DNA of 62,475 nucleotides, the filler included, from Hausera hauseri (Eukaryota), in the NCBI GenBank assembly GCA_046269625.1. It is 10 parts of 10 records of this genome, joined end to end, with 100 filler letters (N's around TTAATTAATTAA, not from the genome) between each part and the next. Parts side by side here need not be neighbours in the genome. Positions count along the whole stretch, not along the records: positions 26,020 to 36,812 come from JBJURY010152199.1; 9 more parts are not named here. The stretch is one strand, 5' to 3'. The notes beneath the pieces are model-generated. The model made no database searches. It was given only the letters and a program-made list of their open reading frames with translations, and was not told where the DNA came from. Shown in pieces: positions 4,590 through 47,112 of this stretch. Numbering within the stretch: the first letter of the stretch is position 1; each line of letters opens with the position of its first letter. A program made the position numbers and the translations under genes.

Positions 4590-5213
4590 ACCTTGATCTG
4601 TCTTGGTTGGTTAAAATTATGCCCATACTCTTACTCTTCAGCATGATGCCAAAAACACTCAAGAATTACTTCTTCCGATTCCAGTCATGCCAAGGGGGCC
4701 CAATATATACTATATTAGATCTACAAAAATGTCCGCATGCCAACCCGACATCATTAACTACGATATCTAATAAAGAATTTTATGTGTACCAAGAATATGA
4801 ATTTGTGAAAACCAAAGTGAAGGAATGTCTTGTGTGGGAAACCACGTGCACTTCATCTGTTGTTTCTGGTGCAGAAATTCAGCCATAGTAGAACCAACGA
4901 CTCCGTTCGAACCACTTCCAATAAGTAGGCGGACGTGCATGGAAGCATTTGTTACAAAACTAATTAAGATTGGAATTATCTAGCTAAAGGCTCAAAAAGG
5001 AAAAATTATTAATAAAAGAATTTTTGTATCTGGCTCAGTCCACAAAACAGGATACTGCAAGGGAGAGTCATATGACATAAACGATGAAATACTGGACAAT
5101 GTGGTAGCTATTGAAGACTATCAAGTTGAGTTAAGGAAATACGATGCAGTCTTCGAAATATCATCCGGACAGATGATGAAATTCCACGAATGTGACTGTA
5201 GTGTCACGGTCTA
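4590..5213 (+). pseudogene. env: Envelope glycoprotein remnant (chuvirus G / class III fusogen-like)
   Basis: Hydrophobic DLSWLVKIMPILLLFSMM, then YTILDLQKCPHANP...FYVYQEYEFVKTKVKECLV; after a frameshift, GSVHKTGYCKGESY...LDNVVAIEDYQVELRKYDA. Confidence 0.7.
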
Positions 5214-5989
5214 AGTCATGGCCCTCCATTTCTGGCAACAGAGTCACCGTTTGGTCTATATTTCGTTTAGGAGACAAATATGGCACATTAGTGTCAAATA
5301 AAATCAATATTCGTATTTAGCTACTTCCCAGACTACCAATTATTCTGCCTTTTAAAATTTTACCGCCTATTACGTAATCGGCACTGAAATGCCTAGAGTT
5401 TAATTTGAAATTAACGAATGACAATACAAGCCAAACTAAAGCACTTACAGTACATAAAAAATATATATACATACCCATTGAATTTATCGGCCCTACATAG
5501 TCCTGCAAAATAAAAAATACGGAAGCTAAATTAAGTTCCGTAAAATTCCTAGATATTTACGGAAAAGAGTTTGACATGTGTCATTATCNNNNNNNNNNNN
5601 NNNNNNNNNNNNNNNNNNNNNNNNNNNNNNNNTTAATTAATTAANNNNNNNNNNNNNNNNNNNNNNNNNNNNNNNNNNNNNNNNNNNNAAAACAAAAATG
5701 AAATGTAATATTTACGTTTTTCAACAACAACAAAAATGCATTTTTTTTAAGATTAAAAAAATAAGCAGGTCAATCTTGTAAACATCTAAACCGTAGAAGG
5801 ACGGGTAACATAAAGTTTGATACTTCTGCACTATGACTGCTAAGTTTATTAAACGAAAACGAATATCCTACTTCAACAGGAACAAAATATTTATGATATC
5901 TCTAACACTGCCTTTTTTCAGTTTCAGAAATGCCAACTTACTGCAACATACAGTACAACGGAAATAAAATTCCAAAGCCACCATATTTT

Positions 5990-10609: not shown

Positions 10610-12693
10610 GAAATTTTATTCAGACTTCAAAATTAGCATTTTAACGGATGCTTTGAAGTTTTGTCATTCGTTTCAGGAGAAACCGCGCATTAGATTGAGA
10701 GTAAATGCCACAAAATTACGATTGAACGAAAAAGCCGTCGAAATTATTTTGGAAGTACATGGTCATTGTATTCGATAAATAGACCCGAAAGATGGGCGTA
10801 TTCCTTCGGTTTATTATTACAAAGATATTGAAATGATTTCCAGTGTCCGATGTCAGTTACGGGTTTATTATTGCATCTGATGGATTTGGTCGAATGCACA
10901 TGTTCTCTGTCCAAACCGAGATGCATTCATTCGTGTAGCAGCCGAAGAAGCAATGAACAAAATCGGCTGTACATTACACGAATCTAAAGATCCATTGTCC
11001 AAGGATTATTTTCTAGAATAGCGGATGGGTAAATACAGCCAAGACGAATACATCACTTCACATGCGTAATTTTACGTTCAAAAAGTGGTTCCTCACAAAC
11101 ATGGCTCAGATAATTCCATACAGAGGCTGCTGTGTTTGACAGAAACATGCCTTGTAGAACAAGATCCATAAACTTATATCCTCGTTACTCTGAGACCGTT
11201 GTGCGATATATTTGCCTTAATTCGTAATCCAGAAAAACCGCAAAAATTCATTATCGAATACGTTCAAGGAGTGGCTAGAACATACTTATCTACAGATCGA
11301 GATTCACTTTTAGCATCTTTACTTGTTGGTGCTCGTTCAATCGGTAATCGCGATGTATGTGTTGAAATGAAACCCACCGAACGTTGGTATCGATTTGGCC
11401 CGTTTATTGTGCCAGTTGAAGAAGAGGTTGAATCGCGGCATATGAAAATGATTCAACAAAAACCGGGGACCTTCTGCTTGTCAGGCACGCTTCAACAAAC
11501 ACCGTGTGGAATGAGATTCAGTGAGGCGGTCAACAAATTCAATGCCAACATACCACACAATGGACAATTGAATGTCGTTACACAAGAAGGTCCGTTTTCG
11601 AAAAATAAAGAACGATTGATAAAAGGAGCTTTGACAGCACTTATCAATAGAGAAGGCAATCAACCTGAGATTTCAGCGCATGAATTAGAAGCTCAATTTC
11701 ATTCCGTACGACGGTTGACAGCTTCGAAGGCTGGTTTCCAAGCATTTACACAAATAAATAAAATGTGCGAAACTCTTAGCAGGAAAGTCTTTCTGGCACT
11801 TCGTAGAAACGATGAAGCCGTTGCTCACTCTGCCATAACATGATCAATTCACTGATACAACTCATGCATGAAAACTATGATATACGACAGGAACAACTGA
11901 ACAAGGCCAGTATTATGTCAAGCGATGAGTTTTTAGAAAGTCTCATGGACATTTTTTCGCTTCATGTGCTACGTGGAACCGGCGCTTTGGATATCAGTGC
12001 AATGCTGGACTTTTCGACATTCACAATTTGACCACCATACTGTGAAACGTCCGAAGGTGACAGCTTTGATACTTTGCTGAAATTGGTTTCTGGTCGTAAT
12101 CGAGTTTTGTTTCGATTATTTCATCATCCGAGTATGGCAACTATGAAAGGTGTAGGTCTGATCATCCAAACTCTCGTTGATAAAGCGGATTCGGAAGTTG
12201 GAGATTCATTGCAAAGACTTACATTAGCAGAAGGCGTCTTACCGCAGCATTTATTGAGTTCAGTGTTTGCAAGAAGCAATGATCATCGTAGTCTGGCATT
12301 TTGTCAACTCAATCGTCAGCTTCTTTCATTATGGGTTTCTGGAAATATCGAAGCCTAAGACTTTTACGACGCGTTTTACCATTTTGTTTGACTTATCACT
12401 TAGACATTACCGATGAACCACCGATGTCATCGATTGACTATTTGTTCGTTAGAGATAATCTGTAAACAGCACCGGTGCATTGTTTGGAAACACAAAAGAA
12501 AAATGCCGAAGCATTACGAGCATTGGAAAAGAAATTAGATAACCTTTTGATGCACTGGCGATCAAAAATTGGTCTCAATATCAAACCAGTCTGTTTGAGG
12601 AAGCGACGAAAGCGCATAAAAGTCTAAGGTAATTGGAAGCTGTTCTTTTATGGCTTTTATCAAGATCATGCAAAACCCAATTTGATTTGGAAT
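10610..12693 (+). pseudogene. DNAJC13: RME-8/DNAJC13 N-terminal fragment, intronless, with stops and frameshifts (processed pseudogene)
   Basis: RLLCLTETCLVEQDP, STDRDSLLASLL, GNRDVCV, VRRLTASKAGFQAFTQ, YDIRQEQLNKAS, GTGALDISAMLDF, FRLFHHPS, LAEGVLPQHL all match RME-8; in-frame stops at ~11170, 11841, 12029, 12356. Confidence 0.9.
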
Positions 12694-15484: not shown

Positions 15485-16555
15485 CTAAATTGATAAGAAA
15501 AAAATGACAATGAATGGTTTGTTTTTTTTCATGGCTTTTTCTTCTATATTAATGCCGCTTGCTACCGCCACCCCATTTGCCAGGGCTTCTTCTAGCGTAG
15601 CCCCTTTTACTATCTTGGTAATAGCGGAGTGCTTCTTTGGCTGCTCTTCTACAAAGGCTTCTTCGGCGATCTCCTCTACCACGGCTTTGCCAGCTTCCTC
15701 GGACTCCTCTGCATCTTCTTCCGCTTCATCCGGCAGCGCCCGGCTGACCGCTTCTGATACGGATTCCAGTTCTGCTTCATTCAGCGGCGTATCGCCTTCG
15801 ACCTCTTCCGGCTCCTTTTCTGCTTCCTCTTCATCAGTTTTGGCTTTTTCTGCCACAGCCTTGACTGCCGCCGCTGCTGAATCTGCCGCAACTGCAGCGC
15901 GCCTTGCCGCCTGGCTCTTAACGGCAGCCGCCTTCTTCGGCGCTCCCGGACGATTGTCATACTTCTCCTGCTGAAGCGGTGTCAGCGGCTTATACTTCAT
16001 CTTAAGTTCCATCGCCTGATAGACATACTTGCCTTCACTGAACCAAAGGATCAGGTCATCGCATTCTTCCAGACACTCTGCAGTCATGCCCGCCTCATGA
16101 TACAGCTTCGCCAGCTCATACGCCCATTTTTCGACATACTCGGCTTTCTTAAAGTCTTCCAGCGCTGTGATCTGCTCTGTAAGCGGCGCGCCCTGCGCCT
16201 TCAATATCTTATACTTTAATATAAACTGGTTCGGATCTTTCGGAGCCAGTTTTACAAACTCTTCATAACAGTCTGATGCTTCCTCTATATCATCAATCTT
16301 CAATGCCAGCGTTCCCAGCCGGTATACAATCTTCCTGCTCCCGGGGGAACGGTCAAATGCAACGAATAAAATATCCCTGCTCTTCTGGAATTCTCCATTG
16401 TACTCATATATCTCGCTGACCGTATTCAGCATTGATGCATTTTTTACCCTTCGCCAGTCTATAGTATCTGCTATCTCCATAGCCTTTTTATACTGCTTTT
16501 GCTCCATGTGCTCGAGCATCTGCTCTGTCTTTACCCTATATTCATATTTATCCAA
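15485..16555 (-). CDS. Bacterial (Lachnospiraceae/Clostridia-type) TPR-like protein, 3'-truncated at a chimeric junction near 15530
   Basis: Intact ORF, much higher GC than its flanks; MDKYEYRVKTEQM...ADTIDWRRVKN...ECDDLILWFSEGKYVYQAMELK; GAGGTG Shine-Dalgarno 6 nt upstream of TTG at 16555. Confidence 0.85.
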   Translation of the reverse strand: MDKYEYRVKTEQMLEHMEQKQYKKAMEIADTIDWRRVKNASMLNTVSEIYEYNGEFQKSRDILFVAFDRSPGSRKIVYRLGTLALKIDDIEEASDCYEEFVKLAPKDPNQFILKYKILKAQGAPLTEQITALEDFKKAEYVEKWAYELAKLYHEAGMTAECLEECDDLILWFSEGKYVYQAMELKMKYKPLTPLQQEKYDNRPGAPKKAAAVKSQAARRAAVAADSAAAAVKAVAEKAKTDEEEAEKEPEEVEGDTPLNEAELESVSEAVSRALPDEAEEDAEESEEAGKAVVEEIAEEAFVEEQPKKHSAITKIVKGATLEEALANGVAVASGINIEEKAMKKNKPFIVIFFLSI

Positions 16556-16615
16556 ATCGCTCACCTCAAATTATTTATTCAAAAACTGATGTTATCTTAC
16601 ATTTTTACTTATATA

Positions 16616-18674: not shown

Positions 18675-20150
18675 TTACATAAGTGCAGCATGTCCATGAG
18701 GCAACGCGCTGATTCCGTCTTCAAGAATGTGCCTCTTGTCATCGAACCAGTCGAGGCTTTTCTTCCGCAGCGAAACCGTAGCAATCTGATGTTCTCGGAA
18801 CTGGATCCTCTTCATCTCACTGACTATATGAATTTGTTCCCTCAACACTCTGTCAAAATCTGCAAATCTTATGTTTTTGACTAGTGTGGTCCTTTGAACT
18901 CCCCTGGCCCGCTTCTTTACCTGGCCACATACATCGATGGCGTACATTTTGATCTCAACGCTACGAAACGGGTGATGATCTTTCCATTTACCTCGTCTTT
19001 AAACTTCCTGGGGACTTCTTATTGGCGGTTGAATAACTTGGATGCTCCTTAGGATAGTCCGAGGTATTCATGTGCTGTGCCAATTGAGCAAAGTCCGCAA
19101 ACAGATCTTCCGTATGGATCTGATACATTAATAAATAAGAATCAATGTACATCAGCTACAGATCCTTGAACTTGGGAACCATGATGTTGTAATGAAAATC
19201 ATACATCAGGGTCTTTGACAAGTCCAGGATTGACATATCGACATAGATCGGCTTGTTAAACTCCAGGGATGTCTTCAGCATATGTATGCTCACAAGGTTT
19301 TCTGCCTATATTGTACTGGAATGGAAGTAGGGCTTGGAAATGAGCTCCTTTGCCCTCTTCCAGTCGCACACCAACTGGATATTTGTCCTGTTACGCATGT
19401 TTTCCATCGTTCTGCCTAAGACCGAGTTATTATACAACTTGAATTAATCCTTTTCGAAGCAATTTTTAATATTGGCCCTGAGTTGCGTGTTGAAGTCTAT
19501 GTAGGGTTGCAACCACATAGACTGGCCAAGTGAAAGGGCTCAATGAATCCCTGTAACTTTGACACCATTCCTCATAGCCTGCTGGAGATTTATATAGTGG
19601 GCTACATACTTCTCCCGATCATCCAAGTGACAAAGCAACTTTTTGTGTTTTCTATTTGGTAGTTGTTTGTTCTCGGGAAGAAAAGGCAGTTGTTTATGCA
19701 TTGAATAGATGCATGTATTCTCCATCACATACAGCCTCACATCCTCGGCAAATAAAATATTGGATCCTATTGAATTTGTACCCATAATAGCTNNNNNNNN
19801 NNTGTTGTGTATTGCACATATGCAATACACGTATGAATTGCATCTTTGATTTGGATTAGGCATTGAAGTAATTATTGGCATAGTGGTATTGATTATTTGT
19901 TTTTCGACTTGGGGAAGGAAATCAGGTGTTGTTTATGGGCATTATAAAAGTCTTCATATTTGGTCTGACACAATACCTCACATGTAAGGCATATATAATA
20001 CTCAGTCCTGCTGTATATATAGCTAAAGTATTTCTGCATAATGTTGTTGCAATTTTCAGGCCCGTAGATTTGAGCCAAGCATTCTTTGTATAGATTGTAC
20101 ATCTAAAAATCAACCTATTATTTGAGAAGCACAAATAAAAATCTCACCAT
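18675..20150 (-). pseudogene. Protein-primed DNA polymerase B remnant (internally deleted)
   Basis: KKRARGVQ...SLDWFDDKRHIL...LPHGH; QLPFLPENK...KKLLCHLDDREKYVAHYINLQQA. Confidence 0.85.
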
Positions 20151-23100
20151 TCATGTAAGTAATTTTGTAAATAATGAAACATCTAGCCATATCAACGCAT
20201 ACTGCCTCATTTATGGGTTTTTAAAATTTTGAATTTTCGAACATCCCAGACCACATTGTTTTAATGCATCAAATAAATTAAATGCACTTGCGTGCCAAAC
20301 AGGTTTTCATGTAACCTATTGGAATGATCAGATTGTTCCAATAATGCATGCTTAGACGAATATTATCGAACTTTTCAATGTTTTATTGATTTCGAGACAC
20401 TTGTAAATACTTTGAACATCCTATTTTTGGTCTACAAAGGTTTTCGGATAAGGGGAATCCGATGGTACTATTTGAATATTCGAATTCGATAGAAAAGTCG
20501 GCTTTCTATTTAAGCCTCTTTTGGAATATCTGACATCATATTCGGATTCTCCATATGTGGGTTTCTATTCCTCTAAGCTTTCATATTTTTTGATTTTTGC
20601 TTCTATTTGAATAGAAAATCAATTATTCGAAAAGTTCGACTTGTCTTCGAGTTTTCGAATATCTGACATCACAATCGGATGGAGCACATGTTAGTTTCTA
20701 TGTGTGTACGCTGTTATACTTTTCGATTTCCACTTGTTTGTGTGCTAAATTCAACTTTAAAGGTTTTATCGAAAAACAGTTATTATTGATTAAAGCACAC
20801 TTGCACATGTGCGACACATCTGCAAAGTGATATATAGATGCATTAAGACATGGGGAATCAACTGACTCTCTCAGATTTTTCAAAAACTTTATGGGCGGCA
20901 AGACACTCGATACTATTTGATGAAAACCGATATTTATTCGAGTTGTGCACCGAATTTCGGAAATCTGAGATGGAAGACCCGGGTTACAATGTGGCAATTC
21001 ATGTCTGTTTCCGCTTAAACATTTATCGAATTTTGCTTCTTTAGGGCCTAAAACACCTATGCAGGTTCTCCTTCAGTTAAACTTGGCACTCACACTATTC
21101 AAAAACTATTCGAACCATTTAAATTCTCAGTGCACAGTGTTGTAGCCAATCAAAAATTCTTTGGAACTGCGCTTTCCAAATGTGCTAATCATCAATATTT
21201 GAGTGATCGGAAATCCGATATTATTGATTTTTGCACACTTGCACATGTGCAGCACGTTTGCACTATGCACTAATCGATGGGCCTCGAGTGCACTATCGAT
21301 TAGCACTTTATCCAGATTAATTCCAATCAATACTGCACCGTGCAGCGATAAATTGTGAAAAGTGCAAAAATGTGCCTAGCAGCGGTGCCATTGAGTGCTT
21401 TAACAATCAGATTACGTATGCGTGTATAGTTATTTTAATCTATTTTACCAATAGTTGCATGTAAATTATCCAAAGTTCAAATATTGGCTGAATTATGTAC
21501 TCACGCCTTTATATACACAAGCTGAGCACAACTCATCACTCACAAAACTCAGCTCATTACTCATAAAGCACTGCCAGAAAACAAACTGTACTTAAATAAG
21601 CTTCCTGTAACCGATCTAAGAGCTAGATTGATTCAAATCAGATATCGAATGATAGAGCTCGGAAAATACGACTACAATGCCGGAAAAATCAGTCCGATAC
21701 ATGGATGGATTTGGAGTAATATTCACAACAAAATATTTNNNNNNNNNNNNNNNNNNNNNNNNNNNNNNNNNNNNNNNNNNNNTTAATTAATTAANNNNNN
21801 NNNNNNNNNNNNNNNNNNNNNNNNNNNNNNNNNNNNNNTTGTTGTTGTTGTTAGAAACTAATCTAGAAGATTCTACACGAATTACCCGGTTGTGCCAGGC
21901 TTAGGTTGGTAACAGAGCGTATAGATATCTTGCCGGGAACGTCATCTTTCAAATAAACATATAATTATTTTCTTCGCCGTATCTACTTCTTTCAGTCTGC
22001 CAAGTGCCTTGTTCTAATATTTGTTTATTTCATTGTCTTGACTTGAGCATCGGGTATCACCCTTTATTTACATATCGTTTTATTTGTTTCAGATATTCCG
22101 TCCTCTCCAATTTCCTATGGGTTCAATTCGTTTAACGTACTCACATTTTGCCGTTTTCATCCCATCTGAATTCTGACAATGTTGACTTACAATATTCTAT
22201 GTGATAAGATTCTTTTATAAAATTTGTCATTTCATCTCATGTTCTCTTTAGTCCAGAAGATTTTCACCTGAAGTCTCACCAATTTTTTCCTTCTTGCTAA
22301 CCTTTCTGTTCTCTGTGGATTAGATTGTAGAAATAATGGATCTGATGGTCGATTGTGGAATATCTAATTGTCGGAAAATATTGAATGATTTGGAGTTTGG
22401 ATTATTTTCAAACAGAAGAGAAAAGAAGTTCTAAATGAGTGTGCACAACTGTGTAAAACGTATAAAAGCAACTAGATGGAATTGTGTTACAGAATAAACG
22501 TTCAGAAAAAAAGGCGAAATAACGAGACAATTTTTACCGTTTGCAAAATACAGAACCATTTCTGATGAACCAATGAAAATAACAAAATAACAACAAAATC
22601 AATGGAATTATTGATTTTTCAAGATTTCTCAATACAGAAAAATCTCATAAAAAATGCAAATTCTGAGAGATAAAATATGTACGATTAATTAATTAATTAT
22701 ATTTTCTATGCAATATTTGCAGGAAATAAAATTGATTTAATTAAGTACAACTTGTGTGCAATTTGTGTTTATTAACTTTACTTAAAGAAGAAAATATACT
22801 GAACACTATAATATATTCCAATAACAAATTTTTACCAACAACTAAATAAACAACACAGAAATATAACTTGATAAATACTTACGGACTAAATAAATCAAAA
22901 TACAATTCCTCGAATTTCTCGCTGTTGCTTACTGTTGCCTATTTCGTTCTTACTTTTTTGCGTTTTTTAACTGATTTCTGCTGAACTATTTATATCAGCG
23001 ACACAGCAAATAAATTCAGCGCCGGCGCGAAATAAAAAATTCCAACAAAATTAAATTAGCCGCGCGCAGAATTATCAAATCAAGGTCATCAAAGAGTCTA

Positions 23101-25177: not shown

Positions 25178-25919
25178 ATAGGGTTGCCTCATAAGTTTGA
25201 ATATTATTGTATGAATATTAAAATACAATAAAATATAAAATATTTTATCAATCGTCCACGTCATGCAAATGTGAAAAGTAGTCTCCATTGTGCTCAATAC
25301 ATCTCAGCCAACGTCCAGGGAGGCTGCGTATCCCATTTTGGAAAAAATCATGCGGTTTCATGTCAAACCAACGTAGAAGATCTTCGTTGATATCGTCGAC
25401 ACCGCATAATTCTTTCATCTAAGTGCACATTTCATTGGAGAGAATAGATAGTAGTCAGATGGTGAGAGATCGGGGGAGTATGGTGGATGTGGTAGTACGG
25501 TGAATCCAAGCGCATTCAGCTTGTCCTTGGTCTTAGCAGCCGTATGCGGACGAGCATTATCGTGGAGATAATGAACATTGCGGTTTCCTCCATGGAGCAA
25601 CCGTCTGCGCCTCTGCTGAACGGCGATAATGAGACGATCCAGCTGAGCACAGTAGACATCCGCATTGATTGTAGCATTTGGAGGTAAGACATCTAACAAG
25701 AGCAGTCCTTTACTGTCCCAAAAGACGGAGGCGAGATGCTTTCGGTTTGTCAGTCTTCGTGCCGGTGTTGCAAGTGGGTTTTCATCCGATTTTCTCCATG
25801 ATCTATTGTTGAAAGCGCCTTCGTTGTCCCAGTACACCCATATCTCATCGCAGGTGATGATTTGGGACAGGAAATCATTCCGATGATAACTATCCAATAG
25901 CTGTTGACAAATTCTTTTG
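25178..25919 (-). mobile_element. Mariner (DD34D) transposase 3' half with probable terminal repeat
   Basis: ITCDEIWVY, HDNARPH, HPPYSPDLSPSDYYLF; continues in a shifted frame to GIRSLPGRWLRCIEHNGDYF. Confidence 0.93.
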
Positions 25920-26019: not shown

Positions 26020-29000
26020 TCCTCATTGATTGTGTGATAATTTATAGCGTTTACGGCCGCTGCTATTTCAACTTTGTTATTTATTTTTAATTTTCCCTTC
26101 TTCGCCGCATCTCGGCATTGATCCATTGTTAATTCATGTGGTTCGTTCGGGGTGGCCATTAAAATATTTGTTGAATGTCGATGCATTTTTCCACAGTGCC
26201 ATTTCTTTATTTGCTTAGTTAACTTACATTCAAGTGCTTTCACTCGTATAAATCTATTTTCTTGATATATCCTATAATTTTTAGTACCTTCGAATATAAG
26301 TTTATCAGGCTCTGCATCTGGACATTTTTCTAGGTCTACAAGGGAGTACGAAGCTCCAACCGCTGGATAATCACAGTCATATGCTCGAAAACCATGGGTT
26401 CCTCGACACAAAATTACAATAAGTATAATTAACCATGTTAAATCATTAGTTCCTTGTCTAGGTAATGTACCACTAGTTAACCTTTGTACTCTAGTAAACA
26501 ATTCAGAAAGTTCATGTTCCCCAAGTCTATCTGTTCTGCTTCCCCTTTCTGATATTTTATTTTCAGTCTTTTGAGGCTTGTCAAAATTCAACAAATCATT
26601 CCATCCTCCAATTCGGTTTATATCTGGAGATATGTGTGTTTTTAAGATTTCTATGGCTACATCAAGGCTACTTTCTCTTTCTTCAATTGTATCCGCCGAA
26701 TTTTTAATTCTCATTGCCAAATATACTAAAATAGTAATAACTCTATCTTTTGTTAAACCTCCCGTCTTAATCCACTTTTGTATTATTTCACTATCCTCTA
26801 TAGGGTCTATCCGTCCTGGTAATTGTTCATTTTTCACTACTGTCTCTAATCGAACCAACGTTCGCTTTAAGTGACTTTCAATATCAAGAGTGAATGGCTC
26901 ATCCATTAATAGGTCATTTTCTACTGGAAATAGGGAATTATAAATTCTCCATAGAATGGGTTTAATTTGCCTTGTTTCAAGATCCATTATTCGAATTTCA
27001 CTTTTTCTTAGTGCTTTGGTTAGAGTATCAACTTTAACTTGCTCCCAAAGGTTTTTTCTTGGACGACCCTGCGGTCGCTTGTCAGTTTGAGTTGTTTCTT
27101 GTCTTGCTTGAAACATATCTAATATATCTTTTACATTAGCTTCATTAATTAAGTTTGATTGTTCTGTTTCTTGTAAAATATCACCGATAATTTGGCTTTC
27201 TCGCACCTTCAATCCTTCTGCCCGAACTGCTAGTTCAGGGACTGGTTGATCAATTTCCATTCTTTCTTGAGGAACTGGTGTCTGCATTTCTTCTTCAATA
27301 TCTAACCGTCGGATAGCCTCGTTTGATCCCAACACATTCTGTATGCGTTGTTCTAACTCTCTTTGCTTTAAATTTTCTCTGTCTGTCCAATTTTCTAAGT
27401 ATACTATAATAATTTCAGTTGGATCCATCCCGTCCATAATTCCTAATTCTATCCATGATTTTTCATAATTTAGGACAGTACGACCCATAAATGTCACTTG
27501 TTTTATTTGAATATTCTCGTCGTCATATTGTAATCTTATCGCTTCGATAGTTCCAACCATTGGTTCATCAACATTTATAGTAACTTGAAACTCACTAGTT
27601 TTATTTCTATATTTACCATATATATTTAGTTGCACTATTTCATTTTCCTCTAATTTTCTATTACTCATTCTTCTTTGGCCATATCGTTCCAATATTTCTT
27701 TTGCCATACTTGCTTCCAGTATGTGATCTGCGGCTTGTTTTACTAAAAACTTACGTATTCGAAGAAATCTTTCTCTGTCTTGGATTAACCAGTTCATAAT
27801 TCTATGCATCTTGTTTAGAACGAGTGTACAAACGTTCTCTTTATCACTGTTATTTAATAACATAGTTAGGTAATACTCAAACTGATCTTCCTCTGTTCGT
27901 ATCTCTTCGATTTCTACACCCGGACCAAGCATCATAATTCGAGGCATTTCTATGGTATCTCTCCCTTTTTGGCTCTCGTCGCCGTAGTTTTTATCAATAA
28001 TATTATTACCTTGATTATCATTACCAACTACGGGTTCATCGTAATTTACAAACCACGTATACATTCCTTGTATTCGTTTCATTTTATCCATCTTTACTTT
28101 GGTATTATTTATCAATCCTTTCGAACATTCTTTATTTTTTGTTTCATCGGCATGAACTTCTAAAGCATATTTATTTTCTTGATTTTTAACTAATACTGGA
28201 GACACATTTTCGTTGTCTCCACCTATCACATGGTAATTTTCTTTGGGTCGTTCCTGATTAACTAATGGTTCTTGAGTTGACCTTAATTTTAATTGTCTCT
28301 CTATTATTGAACTATCTATTCCATATCTTGTTAACATCATCCTTTTATCAACCTTCTCATACTCACTGTTTTCTTCGTCTTTTTCCGACTGAATCCAGTT
28401 ATCTAAAAATATCTGATATATCGAACTATCCAATCGCTCTAATATTTCTCGTAATTTTATAAGTAGCACCATCGATATTTTCATTTCAAATTTTATATTT
28501 AATTTATTAATACCCAGCATTCTTTTTACACATTCAATTTCTATTTCACAAACATTATTAAATCCTCTTAAATGTCGAATTCGTTTAACTTTTAATACAC
28601 TAAGTTCTTTACTCATGGGTACTTTTCTAAATTCGTTTATCGTCTTAATTATTTCATCGAAACAGTGACTACACTTATATCTTTGGAAAGTATTAATAGA
28701 TCGTCTGACCTTCAATCGTCTTTCTATTTCACTTTCCTCTTCTACATTTTCATTCAAACCACAACTTTCTGTTTTTGAAATTTGTTTCAGAAACGTTTCT
28801 AACTTCACTTTATTTATCTCAGTACTAGCCATATTTATCTGCGTTTCCGCATTCTCTTTAACTAATTTCGCGTCACTCACAATTTCATAATTCTGTAAGT
28901 CAACCTTTTTTGATAATTTTTTTGGATCCTTTAACTTCTCCAATCGTTTTCTTAAATCATGTTCCGATTCGTCTTCAGATTCTTCATCTTCTACCTTATC

Positions 29001-31502
29001 TTCTTCTCTAATCATTAAATATTGTTTTCCAAGCGCATTTATTTCGTTACAACCCACATTTTCAGATGTTTCCAAAGTGTTGACATCTATATCCTTCACG
29101 TTATCATACAATTTTATTCCTAATCCATCTGGTATACTCGCCTTTCCATTTATATCTATCTCATTAGCTTCTAAACATTCATTATTAATTTTCATCCGAT
29201 TCAGAACTTCCAATTCATTACTCATTTCTATATTTTCGATTTTAATCTTCTCAATTTTTCGAGGTACATTTAGAATATCAAGAGCCTCAACGCTCGATTC
29301 TTCCGTCAATTCATTATCGTCCATCCTTTTACTGGATTTAATGTAATTTCCAGAATCCGATTCTTCACCCGTCACTACATCCAAATTCATATTTGATTCT
29401 ATATTAATCAAAAAACTTTCGACATTATTTTCACTTTCCAATATTACCGTGCTTAAATCGGATTCGATAATCACATTTTCATCGTTTCCACTACTAAAGT
29501 CAGGGGATGGTGCATTTAAATGGCTTTCATTCAAATCATCTACAGTACAAATACTCTCATTTTTCAACAAGTTTTCAACATCCTTTAATATTGACACTTC
29601 GGTCAAATTTATTTCAACTGCATTTAATTCAACACACGGTTCATTTTCATCATCTTGACAATACCAGTTACTACAACTAGCTCCTTGTGAGCAATCACCA
29701 TATTTGCTTATAAATTTCCTCTCTTCAGATTCCCAAAATTTAAATGTTTCAACATCATCATCGCCATCCTGATTGGATTCTTCTTCTAAACAACCATATT
29801 CGCGCATCATCTGCTTAATACTTTTTATCTGTTCTGGATACTCGATTTTCCTGCAACAAGTATCACTCTTAGGTTTTTTCTTCAATTTCTTATTCTTTAC
29901 TCCAAACATACTAGCTTGATTTTCGTGTAATACTTTCAACCTATCTAATTGGGTACGCATCTCGTCCCTTTCGGCTCTCAATTGTTTCAATTCGAATTCT
30001 ACGTTTACATTATTCGAATTCTGGTAATTTTCAACATTGCTATCATAGTTTCCTCTTTGATTCCATGAATTTTCATAGTACCCATAATTCTCATAGTTCT
30101 CCGAATCATTCAATTGTGTTTCGGAATTCTGGTTATTTTGCATAAGGGTTAATTTATTATAAGTCACCAACAACGGACATTTCTTCCAAATATGTCCGAT
30201 TTGATTACAATGATAGCAAAATCTATTTTCATTCATCGTACTTACCTGAGTTGGACAGGTTCGAGCTACATGTCCCCATTGTGCACAAATATTGCATTGC
30301 TTAGGTTGTTGAATATAAGGTGGCATTAATACCGGCATTCTTTTAACCTCTGGGCAAGACTTTGCAACATGTCCAAATTTCTTGCATTGGTTGCACTGGA
30401 TTGATCCTCTGTAATTAACTTTATCCCTTTCTAACGCCATTGCTTGTTGTGGTGTAGTTTGTGATCGAAGAGGGTATCGTTTTTGCTGTTCTGGAGGGTT
30501 GATCCATTGTGTTCTATTCAAATTTGCTCCAGCGGCCATGTCTTTAACAGGGGTACTCATTCTTTGTGGTTGTAAGTTTGCTCTTATAGGTGATCTTACG
30601 GTATTTGGGTCAATATTAGGAAACAAATTTTGATTTACGTTCTGGTTAGTGCCAACATTCCAACGAGGCGGGCCCCAACGTGGTATCGAGGGAACTTGCC
30701 AACCGGCCTGTCCATATGACCACGACGGAGTCCGCCACGCTTGGTTAGTCGTCCTGAAATTTCGATTAGGGTTTTGCTGTCTAAAATTACTATTTGAAAT
30801 TTGGTTGCTATTAAGGGAGTTTTGATTAATTTGGTTTAGTTTATTCTCTACATTTTCAAAATTTATGGCTTTTCTTATTAGTTCACTCAGAGTAGAGACG
30901 TCACTTTCAATCAATTGTCTCTGTAGCTTGGGGCTATTAAGTCCAGTGATAAAACAATCTATTAAGATAGGCTCCAATGCGAAAACCTTAGGCGCACCTT
31001 TATCTTCTTTAGCAGTATCTTCCTTCTCCAGTGCTTCCTTATAACGTTTACCAAGTAGTTGAAGGGCAAAAGCAAATTTATTAACAGATTCTCCCGGCAG
31101 TTGGACTCTGGACCGTAAACTTCTTAGTTTTGCATTTGAAGATGGATCGGGATCCAAGTTCTTTCTAAATACATCGACAAATTTATCCCAACTCATTTTC
31201 TCCTTTTCCTCAATTTGTAGATAGGCTTGTAGAGCGATTCCCTCCAAATGTGCAACCAACCGTTTAATTTTCTCCTTATCATTCCACTCTAATCCGTCCG
31301 CTTGCGCCGCGTATACTAACATAAAATCATCAAATTCCGTAGTTTCCCCAGAGTAACGTCCTAAATTTAGGTTTGCAAAAGTGGACATCCTCTGTACTTG
31401 AAAATGTTTAAGCTCTTCTATAGGGGTAATAGCACTATTTTCAGTAACCTTTCTTATAATGTTTTCACTTACTACTACCTTTTCGTCCAGTGGCCTCTTC
31501 AA
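26020..31502 (-). CDS. Gag-Env fusion polyprotein (>1820 aa, cut by the contig end): capsid, 3 CCHC knuckles, acidic/coiled-coil region, ubiquitin-like domain, AT-hook, internal signal sequence, chuvirus-G-like ectodomain
   Basis: Uninterrupted ORF; first ATG at 31388; CNQCKKFGHVAKSC, CNICAQWGHVARTC, CYHCNQIGHIWKKC; KRPQGRPRK; WLIILIVILCRGTHG/FRAYDC...YSLVDLEKC...IYQ...ALECK...HCGKMH. Confidence 0.88.
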
Positions 31503-31542
31503 CTTATTAGCCAGACCAAGAGATTTTAAATTTGAAAATCAG

Positions 31543-31560
31543 GTCCTGGCGTGGTCGCCA
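31543..31560 (-). promoter_or_regulatory. Primer-binding site (probably tRNA-Arg)
   Basis: TGGCGACCACGCCAGGAC, 18 nt complementary to a tRNA 3' end (...GUCCUGGCGUGGUCGCCA), just upstream of gag. Confidence 0.8.
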
Positions 31561-31568
31561 AAATTTTA

Positions 31569-31996
31569 TGTTGGTTCTGACTTATTTATTGAACTTCCCT
31601 TTCTTTTTTCTTATTTGTATCCAAAGACAATGTAATATTATTATACCAACCCCTTTTTTACGTAGCCAATTCTTTTATTTTATACTTGCAACAAAAGGAA
31701 GTGAGTCTGTACCTCCCAACCAACTTATATAAACCTCAAGATTCACTAATCAAATTAACTTAAATACAACCGACTGGAAAAACGAGAACTCCCCAATTAC
31801 GTTTAACGGATATTGTAAAAGTGGAGCACTCGATCAACCAATGTCGTTTTAGGACTCTAAATAGAACTATGAGAGCTGAATACTTCTCTGACAATAGTGC
31901 GATTACAGTACGAAATGCCTCAGCACCCTTTTTTCCTTTTACCTTTATTCTTTGCCACACAATTTAGACAAAACTCAAACTATCTCGTACCCAACA
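31569..31996 (-). repeat. Candidate LTR (distal boundary uncertain)
   Basis: Ends ...CCAACA 8 nt before the PBS; a possible TGTTGG start at 31996, or an alternative start near 31926 after a purine tract; no second copy in the window. Confidence 0.45.
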
Positions 31997-32720
31997 CGAG
32001 AAGTGCAGAGTAAACAGACAACCGTAATATCAGAGGTCCACTTAAAAACAAACAAAGATAGGATTTTATCAGCTATCCTAAAAGTTTAACAATCACAATT
32101 AGGAAATCGTGGCAATTGGACGAATAGTCCACGATTTCTCTAATAGCACGCAAACGATTTTTACAATCAAGCTATTTAGGACCCTGGCCTCTCTTAGCTA
32201 AAAAAATGACAATTAAAATATCACAACAACAAAAAAATATAACGAAGAAAAATTAAAACCCACTTGAAAGCAAGATCAATAGTCGATAGTTTCAAAATGG
32301 TTCGTGGATGTCTCGTTTAAACTCTTTTCGCCCGAAAATTTGTTTTAACAAAGAAAACACTTGTAGCACATATTTATTCGCTAGGATTATATTTGTTGTG
32401 TCTCATATACATTCTACGCAGCAATATATACGACACCTTTAAAAAAATGTTACAATTATAGGAGATAATTAACATTCCTTATTATCAACAAGCAATTATA
32501 GATGATAGTCATCATATAGATTTCACACGAAAGGAGGCAGCTATTGCAATTAAAATCAAGGAATCAATGTCACCTGTTACTGCTCTCACCACATTACAAT
32601 AACAGTTTATTCCCCGCACTAACAAAAATCCGCGACTGCTGAGAGTGAAATTAATCATTATGCTCACAACAAAAAGGGGGGGTCACAGATATCGTCTGCC
32701 ACTGACGATGGAATCACAGT

Positions 32721-34595
32721 TCATGGTGAGTCTAATATAATTTGATTAGTCCAGGAAGAAAAATCGTCAAATAAGGATCGGTTGGGTTTTGGTGCAGAAG
32801 CGGGTTTCTGAGAGCATCTACCGGGTGGTGAGGTATCCATATCCGGGGTATCGCTTGTTTTTGATTGGCTTGATAGTATAGAATCTGAAATGGTGGTATC
32901 ATCTGCACGTAATAAGTGGTTAGCACTGATCGTAATTTGAGATATCTGAAGGGTTTTTTGTGCTTGATGGTGAAAAGCATTGAGTGGTAATAATTTCATG
33001 TCGGGGCTATCAGCATCCGTCGGTACGCGAGAAAATGACAAGGGATAATCAGATGGTGGATTTTCGAGGAAAGAAAGGTGCTCCCAACTGCATTGTGGAA
33101 TTGAAGATATGGATGTATGCGGTAGTGTAGTTACCAAGTTAGACAGGGCTTGTGGACGCCACGGAGGTAGGAGCCAGTTAAAACGGCGTCTTTCCTTGTA
33201 GATATCGTGGACTATGAATATCATGTTTTCAGCGTCCATTTTACCTGGTATAAAATATTCAATTGATTTGTATATTACGGAAAAGGGTTTAAAGCCATTC
33301 TGGCTATAGTTAAGGTCAATATATCCTAGTAATAAGTTGGGTGAAAGGTGCCAAAGGTTTAGGAAGTAGAGTGGATCGAAAGTAACCAATATTCTGCCAT
33401 ATATGGCACGTTGAACATGAGCTCTACAAAGAGCGAAATCTGGTGCGTGTTCCAGATCATCTAGAGATATACTATGGCAATGTTTGTCCACATTATCGAT
33501 CTTTTCTCTAGGACGAACAAATGTCTTGTATTTTATTTTAAGTGGTCCATCAGGATCGACATTAAGATCACCCAGGTAGATGTGAATTAATACAGGGAGG
33601 CTGCCAGAAAATGCTACGGCATAGCCGGCAAAAATAATTCCCTGGATAGAGTATGAATAAGGTGTCCGAACATAGGAATGTGTGGAAGGACTCGGGGGTT
33701 GGGGAAGCCAGTCGAGCTCATTTAAGGACATTTTTCCATTAATTGATGCATCTAGGTAACGGCGCCAAGCTGGAGTATCTACATATTCTAGTTCTACATA
33801 CGTAACCGAATTCTCCCTCATTAGAATAGTAAAGGTATGTGAACTCCAGACATCTGCTGTCAAAAGAATAGATTTGAATGGAGATAAGTATACTTTAAAT
33901 ATGGGTAGGGGTGGTCTGTGGATCTCTAATACGATAGATCCTTTAATAACCGACACGAGCATATCTTTTGGTTGCGATGGGAAGTTCTGAATGGAAAATT
34001 GTTGGTCTAAGATTTGTCGCATGGGGTATGGCCCATAATTGTGTGACCAATAAGAAATTAATATGCAACGGTCTTGCAGGCTATTATTTTTGAATTTATT
34101 CGGGATTGTGAAGACAGAGGGGTATTTAAGTGTAGTGTTACGAAGTGATATATCGAAGCGTATAGACCGATACGTGGATCTAGAACGTAAGACCTCAAAA
34201 AGGAAAGGAATAGATAATCCTTTAGGCAAAGAAATGGGTAAACGTGGCATTTGTTGAAGATTGGCAAATTGAATACTTTGTCCGATATTACGGATCGGTG
34301 GGGCATGCATTAAAAAATAGGAAGTATTGGGATAAGACGTAGAAACGAGAGGTAAAAGAAGTAAGGGAGAACGGATTGTATCCATAGTTTGCTCGACGGA
34401 TGCTTCATCACTCTCAACACGGATAATGGACTGCACATAGGTTGCTGACTGGGAGGATATTGATGTCATACGAGGATATCTGTCTTTACGGATACAATAA
34501 TTTACTGGAATCACCTTGATACTTGATTGAACTAAAAAAATAAAGTGGGTGTTAGACCATTGTGCCCAAGCCTGAAAGCAATAGGCCGTGGCCAA
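32721..34595 (-). CDS. Retroelement-associated protein of unknown function (624 aa; first ATG at 34469)
   Basis: Long intact ORF immediately downstream of the 445-aa ORF and integrase; no recognisable motif. Confidence 0.65.
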   Translation of the reverse strand: MATAYCFQAWAQWSNTHFIFLVQSSIKVIPVNYCIRKDRYPRMTSISSQSATYVQSIIRVESDEASVEQTMDTIRSPLLLLPLVSTSYPNTSYFLMHAPPIRNIGQSIQFANLQQMPRLPISLPKGLSIPFLFEVLRSRSTYRSIRFDISLRNTTLKYPSVFTIPNKFKNNSLQDRCILISYWSHNYGPYPMRQILDQQFSIQNFPSQPKDMLVSVIKGSIVLEIHRPPLPIFKVYLSPFKSILLTADVWSSHTFTILMRENSVTYVELEYVDTPAWRRYLDASINGKMSLNELDWLPQPPSPSTHSYVRTPYSYSIQGIIFAGYAVAFSGSLPVLIHIYLGDLNVDPDGPLKIKYKTFVRPREKIDNVDKHCHSISLDDLEHAPDFALCRAHVQRAIYGRILVTFDPLYFLNLWHLSPNLLLGYIDLNYSQNGFKPFSVIYKSIEYFIPGKMDAENMIFIVHDIYKERRRFNWLLPPWRPQALSNLVTTLPHTSISSIPQCSWEHLSFLENPPSDYPLSFSRVPTDADSPDMKLLPLNAFHHQAQKTLQISQITISANHLLRADDTTISDSILSSQSKTSDTPDMDTSPPGRCSQKPASAPKPNRSLFDDFSSWTNQIILDSP

Positions 34596-34604
34596 CTTTA
34601 ATTG

Positions 34605-35969
34605 TCATAATATAGTTGTATAAACACTATCGGTTTGTCTATTTACAATCTCGCCGGGCACGAAATAATTCAAATTAAAGTTAACATCATATTGTGGTAC
34701 ATTTTCATATTCGTTTAAGTGTTCTATATAAAATGTCTCATTGGATTTCTTAAGATACACAGCAAGTGAAAAGCATATTATGATTGCTATACCTGAAATT
34801 ATGATTACGACCACCCATATATAAAAGAGGGCAATTGAAGTTTTTCTTAGGTCTACAAACGTACTAGTTGTTGAAGTAGGCATACGTGTAAAGAAATAGA
34901 AAGTGAACTTTTGTTTCCAGTTTGAAAAATTTGGAAAGAATGGCATGGGCTTCTCCACAAGTTTAGTAGTTATAAAATGTGTTACCTTATTCCCTTGGAT
35001 AGATAAATTTAAGGGGAATTGATTAGATACAGATTTAATGGTTGTAGTCAAACGATTTAATTTCGTAGATATATGTTGTAAGTTTAACGTGGCAACTTTT
35101 GGTTTTATCCAGGGTGATGACCTAGAAGAAAATAAATGCTTCAAATTTATGGTAGTATTAATTATGACACGATGCGAGGGATCTATCAAAACAACAAACT
35201 GGATCCTACACACAGAAGGTCGAAAATGAATATCTTCTTTCTTTAATATTATAAGTCGAGGGGATGAGGGTCCCACAGTCACCAACCAATGCTTCCCTAT
35301 ATATGTAGCTTCCAACACTGGGGGGTTCCATCGAGTTCGTAAAGTATCAATAAAGGAATAAGGGATTGCTTTCCACAAAAATGATCCTGATGTATATAAA
35401 GATTGAACAGGGGGAATTAACCAGTCGTGTATAAAATATACATTCGTCTCAGATATCGGAATAGTAATTCTGATCCATGTTGGCTTGTTGTAGGATATTG
35501 GAAAACGTGGTAAATCAAGGGACAATTTTGGGGTAACTGTCCTTCTAGAAAAATTTAATCTGATTCCTTCAATTTGTACCAAGACTCCAGATTGTCCCTC
35601 AGTCCATAAATACTGATAAGCCAAGAATGGTTCTCTGAAAATTCGAAACGAAGGTGTTTGTAAAGGTGGTGTTTCCCACCTATCAACTATTGTCGTTGAG
35701 TATGGATCAAGAAAGGCGAAGGTTTGCTGCACTGTAGGTTTGTCCACGGGGTAAAAACATGCTCCACCAGGCGATTCAATTGTACAAAGGCCAAGAAATT
35801 CTATTGACCGGTTATTCCAGATATGAAATATTAAAATTTTAACAGTATTAGTTGTATGAGGAATATTTGTATGTAAATAAGTTATCTGGTTTTGATGTCT
35901 CCATCCCATATATATCGCTGGTCGACATTCGTAAATTTTCAAGCAACAAATTAGGGTAAAAAATGTTGC
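34605..35969 (-). CDS. Type I membrane protein in the env position (~450 aa)
   Basis: Signal-like ATFFTLICCLKIYEC with no ATG, N-glycosylation sequons (NRS, NFS, NTT, NLS), TM segment IALFYIWVVVIIISGIAIIICFSLAVYL, Tyr-motif tail. Confidence 0.7.
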   Translation of the reverse strand, partial: ATFFTLICCLKIYECRPAIYMGWRHQNQITYLHTNIPHTTNTVKILIFHIWNNRSIEFLGLCTIESPGGACFYPVDKPTVQQTFAFLDPYSTTIVDRWETPPLQTPSFRIFREPFLAYQYLWTEGQSGVLVQIEGIRLNFSRRTVTPKLSLDLPRFPISYNKPTWIRITIPISETNVYFIHDWLIPPVQSLYTSGSFLWKAIPYSFIDTLRTRWNPPVLEATYIGKHWLVTVGPSSPRLIILKKEDIHFRPSVCRIQFVVLIDPSHRVIINTTINLKHLFSSRSSPWIKPKVATLNLQHISTKLNRLTTTIKSVSNQFPLNLSIQGNKVTHFITTKLVEKPMPFFPNFSNWKQKFTFYFFTRMPTSTTSTFVDLRKTSIALFYIWVVVIIISGIAIIICFSLAVYLKKSNETFYIEHLNEYENVPQYDVNFNLNYFVPGEIVNRQTDSVYTTIL

Positions 35970-36019
35970 CTATGAGATACGATTTTTAAATCATATAGAG
36001 CAGGCTGGTAGATTAATAT

Positions 36020-36812
36020 CTGTTACTTTTTTATATCTTTCTTTCTATCCTCCGGTTGTGTTATTTCTGGATTTTTGTTTTTCGATATAGGTTGAGAAGC
36101 CAATTTACACCATTCTGCTGCTAAACAAACAAGTTCATTACGTTTCCCTACATTCTTTTTAATAAAAATATTGTTATCTGTAACTCGCTCGACCTGGTAT
36201 GGTCCTTTCCATAGATTAGTTAGCTTAGGTAATAAACCTTTTTTGTTACATGGTTATAAACCATTACCCAATCATCTGCTTGAATTTTGTGGGGTCTAGA
36301 ATATTTATCATACTGCCTTTTATACGGTTTTTGATAATCTAATGTCAATGATTGAGCTAAGGCCCAAGCTTTCGTTAATTTTTCCTTTAGATAATTTACA
36401 TAATCTGGTTCACTTTTTGTCAATGCTTCATTTGGTATAAATTCTAAATCTATGGGTAGTAATGGTTCTCTTCCGTACATCAAAAAAGGAGATTTATGTG
36501 TTTCCGTATGTGGTGCAGATCTCAAGGCAAACATGCAGGCTGGAATAAATAGGTCCCAATCATCTTGTCAATCGTTTGTTACTGTTGCCAACATTGATAA
36601 TAATGTTCCATTTAGTTTTTCTACCATTCCATCTGTTTGTGGGTGATATGCAGCGGTTTTAAGTTTATATATCGTGAACAATTTGCACACTTCTTCAAAC
36701 ATGCGATTTATAAATTCTCTTCCTTGATCAGTTAATATTTTTCGTGGAGCACCATACCGAAAAACTATTTCTTCAACAAACAAAGCTGCGACGGTGAATG
36801 CCGTCTTATCAG
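36020..36812 (-). pseudogene. pol: Ty3/Gypsy integrase C-terminal part
   Basis: RYGAPRKILTDQGREF, YHPQTDGMVEKLN, SPFLMYGREP, WKGPY; in-frame stop at 36568 and a frameshift near 36240. Confidence 0.92.
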
Positions 36813-45780: not shown

Positions 45781-47112
45781 TAGAGGAAAAATGGGAGTTC
45801 TGACACAGGTACACAACTTCATCCATTAATTAAATTGATGCGTTAAAACAAAAGTCAATTTAATGATTGGGTGAATTGGAATTGATACTTATTTGCATTC
45901 CCCCTTGGGTGAATCGGAATTTATTCGCCGTCACATGAGGTCATTTAAGGATTATGAACAACATATTTCGAACAACAATATTTTCGTAGTGTTTTATAAA
46001 TGTCCTTGGCCGGTAGTTGAATTTGAAAGTGCTGAAATGGCTTTTGAAAATTTTCTTTTGTTGAAAAATTTTCACTTTCTTGTCATCGTTCCTGGGATGT
46101 TTATTTACATTTTCCAATCTTTCATAATTGACTACAATTTTCCTGGCTTTGCTGACAGCTTCTTTATAAGTGACAGGATCATAACAATCATATAATTCTG
46201 AATTTCTGAGGTTACTCCATAACATAACTAAGCTAAGGGAGCGTGTTCTCTTATGTCTTTATCTGCGTAAGCTCTCTGAACCAACGTCTGAAGGACCCAT
46301 GCATACTGTTGCACGGTTTCGTCTTTTCTCTGACGTCTCCTGTTGACTTTTCCAATTAGACCCTTTCCTGACGGGTCTACCTAGAGCCTATCCTTCAGGG
46401 CCTCTTTAAGGCTATTCCAATCAGCTTTATTATCTTCTACTTGTGTATAAGCACTGAGTGCTATTCCTTTAGGATGAAGTGGACGGCGTTTTATACTGAG
46501 CTCGTCTGTCTATCCGAAGCTTTCTGAGTATATTTAGTACTACGTCAGGAACTCCCTATAATCCTGATCTGGTTTGTCTTCAAAATTGTCCATTGGTAAA
46601 ACCATTGTTGCACGTAGCTTGCTACCTAAACTGGCACCCAATCCTGAACTACGCATTTTTAGATTTTCTTCTGTTTCAGAGTCGCATGGGCTTCTTGCCG
46701 AATCCGTATTCTCAACTCTATTATTTATAGGGTTTCATCTACTTTGTAAATGATTCATCAGCGTACCTCGTCACTCACGACAATGGATCGAGAAGAAAAA
46801 GTGTGGCCTATGAACATTATTGTATTAACTGTAAATATAACAATGTATATATTATTGATTTCCTTATATATTTCTACAAATAAATATTTTACTCTGTCTT
46901 ATTTTTTTATCTCCATTGGCCTTGACATGAAATGATCTCATGTGACGGAGGGATGGAGTAAGTACAAGTTCCGAATACGCAAATCGGAGGAAAAGGAATA
47001 AGTACCAATTCCGATACACCCAATGGTCAAATGAATTTTTGTTTTAACGCATCATTTTAATTAAAAGAGGGGTGGGGATATGGGTTGATACCATGTCCTC
47101 CTATCTAACTAC
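45779..47112 (-). mobile_element. Gag fragment bracketed by ~170-bp imperfect inverted repeats
   Basis: Gag pseudogene at ~46040-46710 is a close relative of 1771-2410; the repeats share aaatga.ctcatgtgacgg...ttcc.at.cacccaa...tttgttttaacgcatca. Confidence 0.7.

Follow-up and report, generated by a model that had tools for sequence, protein, structure and literature searches.

A probable Burro-like GAG-ENV-POL retroelement of Hausera hauseri that joins Gag in frame to a gB-type fusogen

How does a retroelement come to encode Gag and a membrane fusion protein in a single reading frame, with no pol between them? This question is raised by one contig of Hausera hauseri (assembly GCA_046269625.1; record JBJURY010152199.1), which occupies positions 26020-36812 of the 62,475-nucleotide stretch analyzed here (the window), a series of short contigs joined via 100-nt linkers. 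A sequence-only reading of its long open reading frame (ORF1) had left two options: either pol is placed elsewhere in the element, or the locus is a pol-less, possibly domesticated unit. On the basis of what was observed directly, namely, the domains, their order in relatives and the many related copies, we consider it very probable that the locus is the 5' half of a multicopy Ty3/gypsy long terminal repeat (LTR) retroelement of the Burro-like GAG-ENV-POL type, with ORF1 likely entering pol past the end of the contig. With the same high confidence, we read its content as Gag, followed by a likely ubiquitin-like module, then a Bcl-2 fold and finally a fusogen of the gB type, all in one frame. 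We use the label Burro-like here, and not Burro sensu stricto. The parts of ORF1 are as follows:

26020..31538, minus strand: ORF1, 1,839 codons, truncated by the contig end; Gag, cargo-bearing spacer, signal sequence and start of the fusogen
30843..31373, minus strand: Ty3/gypsy capsid domain (aa ~56-232)
30177..30395, minus strand: three CCHC zinc knuckles (nucleocapsid), with motif starts at aa 382, 415 and 441
27435..27815, minus strand: probable helical plus ubiquitin-like module (aa 1242-1368)
26574..26882, minus strand: Bcl-2-fold domain (aa ~1553-1655), with BH1-like and BH2-like (GGW) motifs
26391..26441, minus strand: internal signal sequence (aa ~1700-1716, from hydropathy); predicted cleavage before aa 1717
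26020..26390, minus strand: start of a chuvirus/gB-type class III fusogen (first 123 aa), truncated by the contig end

From 31538 down to 26020, where the contig ends against an artificial 100-nt linker, ORF1 contains no stop codon; the earlier count of more than 1,820 aa was thus borne out, and the longest ORF among 200 shuffled sequences reached 130 codons. The Gypsy capsid and the three CCHC knuckles that had been read from the sequence, together a hallmark of Ty3/gypsy elements, were both found in the window, the former through Pfam matches to Retrotrans_gag (E 3e-7, aa 95-200) and Ty3_capsid (E 4e-6). Identity to the Gag of two relatives (P0005 and P0007) amounted to 28-33%. The first Met of ORF1 is codon 51, and the variants within the 50 codons that precede it (31389-31538) are mostly synonymous and fall on third positions (4 of 6 listed sites), so that translation may start further upstream, at a non-AUG codon.

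At its other end, ORF1 carries a class III fusogen of the chuvirus/gB type, which shares the frame of Gag and lies behind an internal signal sequence. Residues 1697-1839 match PF24664, the Monjiviricetes fusion glycoprotein (E 3.9e-16; 58.6 bits versus a cutoff of 27), and the hydrophobic peak lies at aa 1700-1710, within the internal signal sequence; relatives show a similar hydrophobic stretch ahead of their YDC motif, and signal peptidase would be expected to cut before aa 1717. A full HMMER search with aa 1200-1839 yielded 37 proteins, and PF24664 was present in all 19 of these that were scanned, as well as in five of five further ones. Since the window holds just 123 aa of the fusogen, P0003, a relative that aligns with 255 aa of the query at 33% identity, was folded instead, from a 22-row alignment. 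The resulting model (mean predicted local distance difference test score [pLDDT], 69.5; predicted template modeling score, 0.42) best matched chu-like virus glycoproteins (E 2e-36) and gB of herpes simplex virus (HSV; E 2e-12), which makes the family assignment of this predicted structure clear, while its low TM-scores (up to 0.4 of the query) indicate that the arrangement of the domains was poorly modeled. The chuvirus-type identity proposed earlier therefore stands. Together, an HSV/gB-type env, a signal peptide and a transmembrane segment mark gB-type errantiviruses; all three were found, the transmembrane segment in relatives only. Word-indexed protein searches gave no match for aa 1690-1839, nor for aa 1200-1839 among longer proteins (a region for which the full HMMER search did find matches), a PDB sequence search with the fusogen fragment returned spurious matches only, and no relative was found in the viral contigs searched.

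The region between Gag and the fusogen had been described as some 1,250 aa free of pol motifs. This proved correct as far as pol is concerned: ORF1 has no [YF]xDD motif, its single DSG (aa 728) sits within an acidic stretch, and neither a hidden protease nor a hidden reverse transcriptase was detected there by tblastn at a significant level. The region is not empty, however. Directly ahead of the in-frame env lies a Bcl-2-fold domain, an arrangement that also characterizes Burro-like elements. A profile built from the window and seven relatives matches Bcl-xL (E 2.5e-5), with all 60 of the matches listed being Bcl-xL or Bcl-2 constructs, and a profile made without the window scored aa 1576-1651 at 33.9 bits, versus 7.2 bits for the best of 500 shuffles. 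In the structural model of the region, pLDDT values were 72-85 over aa 1577-1646; the top 10 VIA matches were all cellular or viral Bcl-2 family members (Z 7.2-8.4; root mean square deviation, 3.1-6.6 Å; ~100 residues), and Foldseek ranked two viral Bcl-2 proteins first (E 0.25-0.41). Subthreshold Pfam Bcl-2 matches were located just ahead of the signal sequence in P0003, P0017, P0021 and P0022. An Atlas search with the region gave no usable match. The BH2-like GGW motif is absent ahead of the fusogen in several relatives (e.g., P0006, P0009 and P0010), indicating that the Bcl-2 cargo is patchily distributed. Further upstream, L001 to L003, P0005, P0010, P0012 and P0020 clearly contain a helical plus ubiquitin-like module, and the relatives' module matches ISG15/ubiquitin-like chains (best E 2.5e-4). 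As MAFFT misaligned the window's copy with those of the relatives, profile scoring was used instead; the copy reached a modest 13.1 bits on a profile of eight relative segments (best of 500 shuffles, 6.0 bits). Pfam searches with subregions of aa 460-1240 gave no match.

Where, then, does pol lie? The remainder of the 10.8-kb contig, which in order carries an integrase end, ORF A, ORF B, an LTR, a primer-binding site (PBS), gag and the start of the fusogen, provides part of the answer:

36026..36812, minus strand: integrase (core plus C-terminal GPY region) belonging to the same family, truncated by the other contig end
34605..35969, minus strand: ORF A (454 codons), encoding a predicted type I membrane protein in the family's post-integrase membrane-protein slot
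32721..34604, minus strand: ORF B (627 codons, the first Met being codon 46), encoding a homologue of ISG20/DEDDh-type exonucleases, with the catalytic acidic residues replaced
31569..32671, minus strand: likely LTR of 1,103 nt with TG...CA ends, which form an inverted repeat of 5 nt (TGTTG...CAACA)
31549..31560, minus strand: PBS of the tRNA-Arg(UCG/UCU) type, 8 nt past the LTR end

The integrase fragment, found by tblastn with the integrases of relatives (36810-36134), lies on the same contig and strand as ORF1, 4.7 kb upstream of it. It retains its catalytic D and E motifs and shares 35-45% identity with the integrases of seven relatives that have both fusogen and pol. Since ORF1 is truncated at one contig end and an integrase precedes the LTR-like repeat on the same contig, the contig likely reads through one LTR; that is, it likely runs from the element's 3' end through an LTR, probably one shared by both element halves, into the 5' end, in which case the remainder of env and the bulk of pol would be unassembled. 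Two contigs are consistent with the proposed LTR borders: one from sequencing run X1 matches 32207-32671 and departs from the window at the predicted LTR start, and one from run X2 matches 31603-31568 and departs at the other predicted end. The TG...CA repeat is followed by a tRNA-type PBS, as is usual for Ty3/gypsy elements, with a single LTR copy present; a second was not found within the window. The earlier call of a PBS held up, with 11 of 12 nt (31560-31549) identical to the terminal 12 nt that the PMC13524379 supplement gives for tRNA-Arg(UCG/UCU). The PBS of L004 is identical to that in the window. No tRNA genes were found in the window or the relative loci. Directly ahead of the predicted LTR start, the sequence C7T4 (32672-32682) corresponds to a typical polypurine tract in reverse complement, and the join at this point may mix different copies.

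The second part of the answer comes from the relatives. A protease domain follows PF24664 in 7 of the 19 scanned proteins, and in three of these seven (P0009, P0020 and P0023), as well as in P0039, the frame runs on through reverse transcriptase, RNase H and integrase. In none of the 19 does pol precede the fusogen. A metagenome scan of 594 candidate stretches added at least four loci (L001 to L004). L002 (3,703 aa) and L004 (2,693 aa) encode Gag/CCHC, PF24664, protease, reverse transcriptase, RNase H and integrase, in that order, in one ORF; L001 shows the same order from the spacer onward, and L003 ends within the fusogen. An env between gag and pol is thus represented by the gag-env junction in the window and by the env-pol junction in L001, L002, L004, P0009, P0020, P0023 and P0039, with the full protease-reverse transcriptase-RNase H-integrase order found in the relatives and only the integrase end, with its GPY motif, in the window. 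Fusogen start and integrase rank seven relatives alike, with L001 at the top (38% and 45%, respectively) and L004 at the bottom (22% and 35%); the agreement corresponds to a Spearman coefficient of 0.73 over 28 nonindependent pairs. Hence, the suggestion that pol is placed elsewhere in the element is supported, while the alternative of a pol-less or domesticated unit is not supported, given a multicopy family whose relatives carry pol in frame. Among these relatives, additional hydrophobic segments between fusogen and reverse transcriptase (L001:4754-5310; P0039, aa ~2095) suggest that some family members may possess a third membrane protein inside pol, and up to seven protease-like repeats, as well as ankyrin and C2H2 domains, were also observed.

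Several points weigh against our interpretation. No sequence spans the passage from 26020 into the element's own pol, which we infer, and tblastn with the protease, reverse transcriptase and RNase H of three relatives gave no significant match anywhere in the window. In the relatives P0003 and P0012, the protein as called stops at the fusogen's transmembrane segment or just beyond it. Each LTR end is supported by one contig only, among the loose ends listed, and no polypurine tract was found before the LTR, where the sense strand reads C7T4. The window's own Bcl-2 and ubiquitin-like scores are modest, neither domain has a Pfam match in the window's own copy, the Foldseek E values are 0.25 or higher, and VIA Z scores of 7-8 fall in the range that the tool calls common. 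Finally, the integrase is broken by an in-frame stop (36570-36568) and a change of frame near 36240, i.e., at least two lesions in 843 nt versus none in 8,768 nt of the other ORFs, a clustering with a chance of ~0.008 if two lesions fell randomly.

With its integrase broken and its other ORFs open, this copy is perhaps not autonomous, and to that slight extent the pol-less idea survives. One could go further and propose a nonautonomous subfamily, in which pol decays but gag-env, ORF A and ORF B persist; its copies would supply enveloped particles and borrow reverse transcriptase and integrase from intact relatives. The concentration of lesions in the integrase, next to three open ORFs, fits this proposal, as does the fraction of synonymous sites among the variants (15 of 25 in ORF1 versus 2 of 7 in the integrase, at sites selected by the tool as best supported). 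However, these counts are small, lesions at a contig end in a many-copy family could stem from a single old copy, the integrase fragment still contains its catalytic D and E motifs, and X1 holds numerous integrase-bearing pieces over this very region. We therefore regard such a subfamily as unlikely. About equally doubtful, if not slightly more so, is the possibility that the contig represents a true tandem instead of a collapsed assembly, with an older, broken copy upstream and a younger one downstream sharing one LTR, which would leave the identity of the element the same. The broken integrase and the open gag-env could then belong to copies of different ages, and the X1 contigs that flank the LTR start overlap by just 23 nt (32649-32671) and do not exactly reproduce the join. 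Nevertheless, one X1 contig departs exactly at the LTR start, as expected of a 5' LTR in host DNA, and joining via a shared LTR is the usual result of short-read assembly.

The preferred reading, a mobile GAG-ENV-POL element, is further informed by its copies. Five sequencing runs from five studies contain part of this sequence, two of them covering half or more; no RNA run was among the runs listed. In X1, a possible source of the window, 6,811 contig pieces, mostly 85-99% alike, are spread across all 30 bins of the contig (their summed depth does not equal copy number), and up to 41 contigs carry a differing letter at one site. Plainly, the element exists in many divergent copies. Another contig of the window (1856-5262, plus strand) carries a frameshifted and decayed copy that belongs to a second family of the same kind; it shares 59-80% identity with P0005 and comprises gag, spacer, Bcl-2 region and the start of the fusogen. 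A gag fragment lies elsewhere in the window (46135-46650, minus strand).

Together, the many divergent copies and this second-family copy argue against both domestication and chimerism. A domesticated host gene producing virus-like particles from Gag and the fusogen could account for the long intact ORF and, again, for the predominance of synonymous variants; given that an LTR-like repeat and a PBS are kept, that copies are many and divergent, and that the layout equals that of mobile relatives, we consider it very improbable. The same low probability is assigned to a chimeric assembly, or to a gag-pol-env element that has lost pol through an in-frame deletion, both of which the sequence-only reading had itself named as potential pitfalls. 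The window is, admittedly, built of short joined contigs, and no single run contig spans ORF1. However, the gag-spacer-fusogen order recurs in P0005, P0007, P0010, L002, L003, L004 and the second window family, and relatives place the integrase after the fusogen, so that an artifact or a single deletion is hard to maintain.

Nematode NERVs are said to contain a continuous gag-env-pro-pol ORF. Their env-before-pol placement (Sacco et al. 2022, as cited in the parts of PMC13524379 consulted) resembles that of the element described here. More generally, the in-frame combination of Gag and a class III fusogen without intervening pol, presented earlier as unusual, is a layout that has already been published. 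The planarian Burro/GYPSM1 elements, giant Ty3/gypsy elements, encode gag, two or three CCHC knuckles, Ubi/SUMO-like and BCL-2 domains, a mononegavirus-like env and protease-reverse transcriptase-RNase H-integrase in one ORF, and the account by Arkhipova and Yushenova (2019, PMC6431247), as far as consulted, calls Burro the first instance of an in-frame env between gag and pol. According to the sections of PMC13465017 available to us (citing Lee 2026), a RING-BIR cargo of Burro1 is reported to protect stem cells. The present family shares retrotrans_gag, CCHC and BCL2-like domains and an env behind BCL2 with the Burro description consulted and, in relatives, also a clear Ubi/SUMO-like domain and a protease-reverse transcriptase-RNase H-integrase order that follows env. 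It differs in that MATH, BIR and RING domains were not found by Pfam before the fusogen in this incomplete element, in that complete relatives measure 9-15 kb versus the 25-30 kb given for Burro, and in that the Burro account in PMC6431247, in the portion consulted, contains no post-integrase membrane protein or exonuclease ORF.

GAG-ENV-POL elements with an HSV/gB-type env have also been catalogued, as "ancient errantiviruses," in Nematoda, Bryozoa and Platyhelminthes (Chary and Hayashi 2026, PMC13524379, in the parts consulted). With these, our element has in common the gene order, a gB/chuvirus-type env with signal peptide and transmembrane segment, multiple copies and a tRNA PBS. Since the main text of PMC13524379, in the form available, does not contain the terms "Bcl," "ubiquitin," "exonuclease," "fused" or "single ORF," the cargo and the in-frame fusion appear not to be treated there. 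Anakin elements (Dezordi 2020, PMC7642597, partly consulted) captured a glycoprotein of the same class but have a BEL/Pao backbone, in contrast to the Ty3/gypsy capsid seen here and the gypsy-type pol of the relatives. Troyka (PMC12440569) was ruled out by the CG termini given for it in the part of that source seen. Finally, the bdelloid Juno and Vesta LTR elements carry a DEDDy exonuclease or a transmembrane ORF3 (Rodriguez 2017, PMC5408684, partly consulted), making them similar in having exonuclease and transmembrane ORFs downstream of pol in a gypsy-like element. Going by the same portion of that source, their exonuclease is of the DEDDy type with intact catalytic residues, whereas the protein encoded here is ISG20-like (DEDDh) and its residues have been lost in this lineage.

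This leads to the 3' cargo. ORF A, out of frame with the integrase, has a weak N-terminal hydrophobic stretch, a transmembrane segment (aa 384-400) and a short tail. A signal-like stretch, an ectodomain and a transmembrane segment follow the integrase in frame in L001, L002, L004, P0009, P0020, P0023 and P0039, i.e., in seven of the eight relatives whose integrase end is available; P0040 ends soon after the integrase. Among the post-integrase proteins of six relatives, only those of L001 and L002 align well. Comparison of the ORF A sequence with its counterparts in the relatives and with the libraries detected no similarity; a word-indexed search gave no match, and Atlas returned only leads below 0.8. 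Fibronectin type III domains were considered for the post-integrase protein and rejected, as there was no PDB or Pfam match and ORF A scored below shuffles on a six-relative profile. No description of a post-integrase membrane protein was found in the literature searched, which did not cover Grohme 2018, Sacco 2022 or Lee 2026, nor the figures and sequence repository of PMC13524379, which may show such a protein.

ORF B matches ORF3 of L002 (tblastn E 1.6e-5), likewise located after the integrase, and aligns with the exonuclease ORFs of both L002 and L001, whose profile in turn matches ISG20L2 (E 3e-10) and ISG20 (E 2e-9); ORF B itself scores 11.8 bits (shuffles, 1.5 bits). Since the DxE motif kept in the relatives is replaced by A and Y in ORF B, the predicted protein has likely lost its nuclease activity. 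An exonuclease ORF is present in two of the three loci that extend beyond the integrase, and in both, small ORFs without an assigned function adjoin it (L002:11375-12040 and L001:12250-12680).

Other parts of the window contain further features. A 223-codon stretch (11172-11843, plus strand) matches the N terminus of RME-8 (E 4e-73) and could represent either an exon or part of a captured gene. Three related copies (19016-21262, 49636-53961 and 58594-61893), 71-85% alike, match endonuclease VII and protein-primed polB, which suggests Polinton/Maverick-type elements. In addition, a BEL/Pao-type DUF1759 with a CCCH finger (56659-58275, minus strand), a mariner-type transposase fragment (25415-25919, minus strand) and an ORF with TPR and a weak VRR-NUC match (15485-16570, minus strand) were observed.

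How might such a polyprotein work? Judging by the usual behavior of signal sequences and viral polyproteins, we propose that a single polyprotein would be synthesized at the endoplasmic reticulum, with the Gag, ubiquitin-like and Bcl-2 parts remaining in the cytosol. The internal signal would thread the fusogen into the lumen, signal peptidase would release it ahead of aa 1717, and the transmembrane helix of the fusogen would bring protease, reverse transcriptase, RNase H and integrase back to the cytosol, after which a second signal, behind the integrase, would export another surface protein. The spent internal signal could then serve as a C-terminal anchor, ~45 aa behind the Bcl-2 fold, similar to the tail anchor of cellular Bcl-2 proteins; the Bcl-2 fold would likely delay the death of the producing cell. 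In this way, Gag-side and Pol-side products would both be tethered to the fusogen-bearing membrane, and the protease would free the mature parts during budding.

In summary, the Burro-like GAG-ENV-POL elements gain a divergent member, whose integrase is 35-45% identical to those of the closest relatives in this analysis and whose 3' cargo, a post-integrase membrane protein and an exonuclease ORF, recurs in relatives. The less known parts are the type I membrane protein after the integrase and the ISG20-like exonuclease, here without its catalytic residues. Tentatively, and with more doubt than confidence, the family might be viewed as a complex enveloped invertebrate retrovirus with two surface proteins cut from one polyprotein, namely, a gB-type fusogen that is conserved and, behind the integrase, an attachment protein that changes rapidly, accompanied by three host-control cargos. 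These cargos would then, in an equally speculative vein, be the signal-peptide-anchored Bcl-2 fold, the ubiquitin-like module and a dead ISG20-like RNA-binding protein that possibly counters small-RNA silencing. If the second protein is indeed an attachment protein, binding and fusion would be split as they are in herpesviruses and paramyxoviruses, and such a split, if true, would bear on whether enveloped retrotransposons move from cell to cell in invertebrates besides flies.

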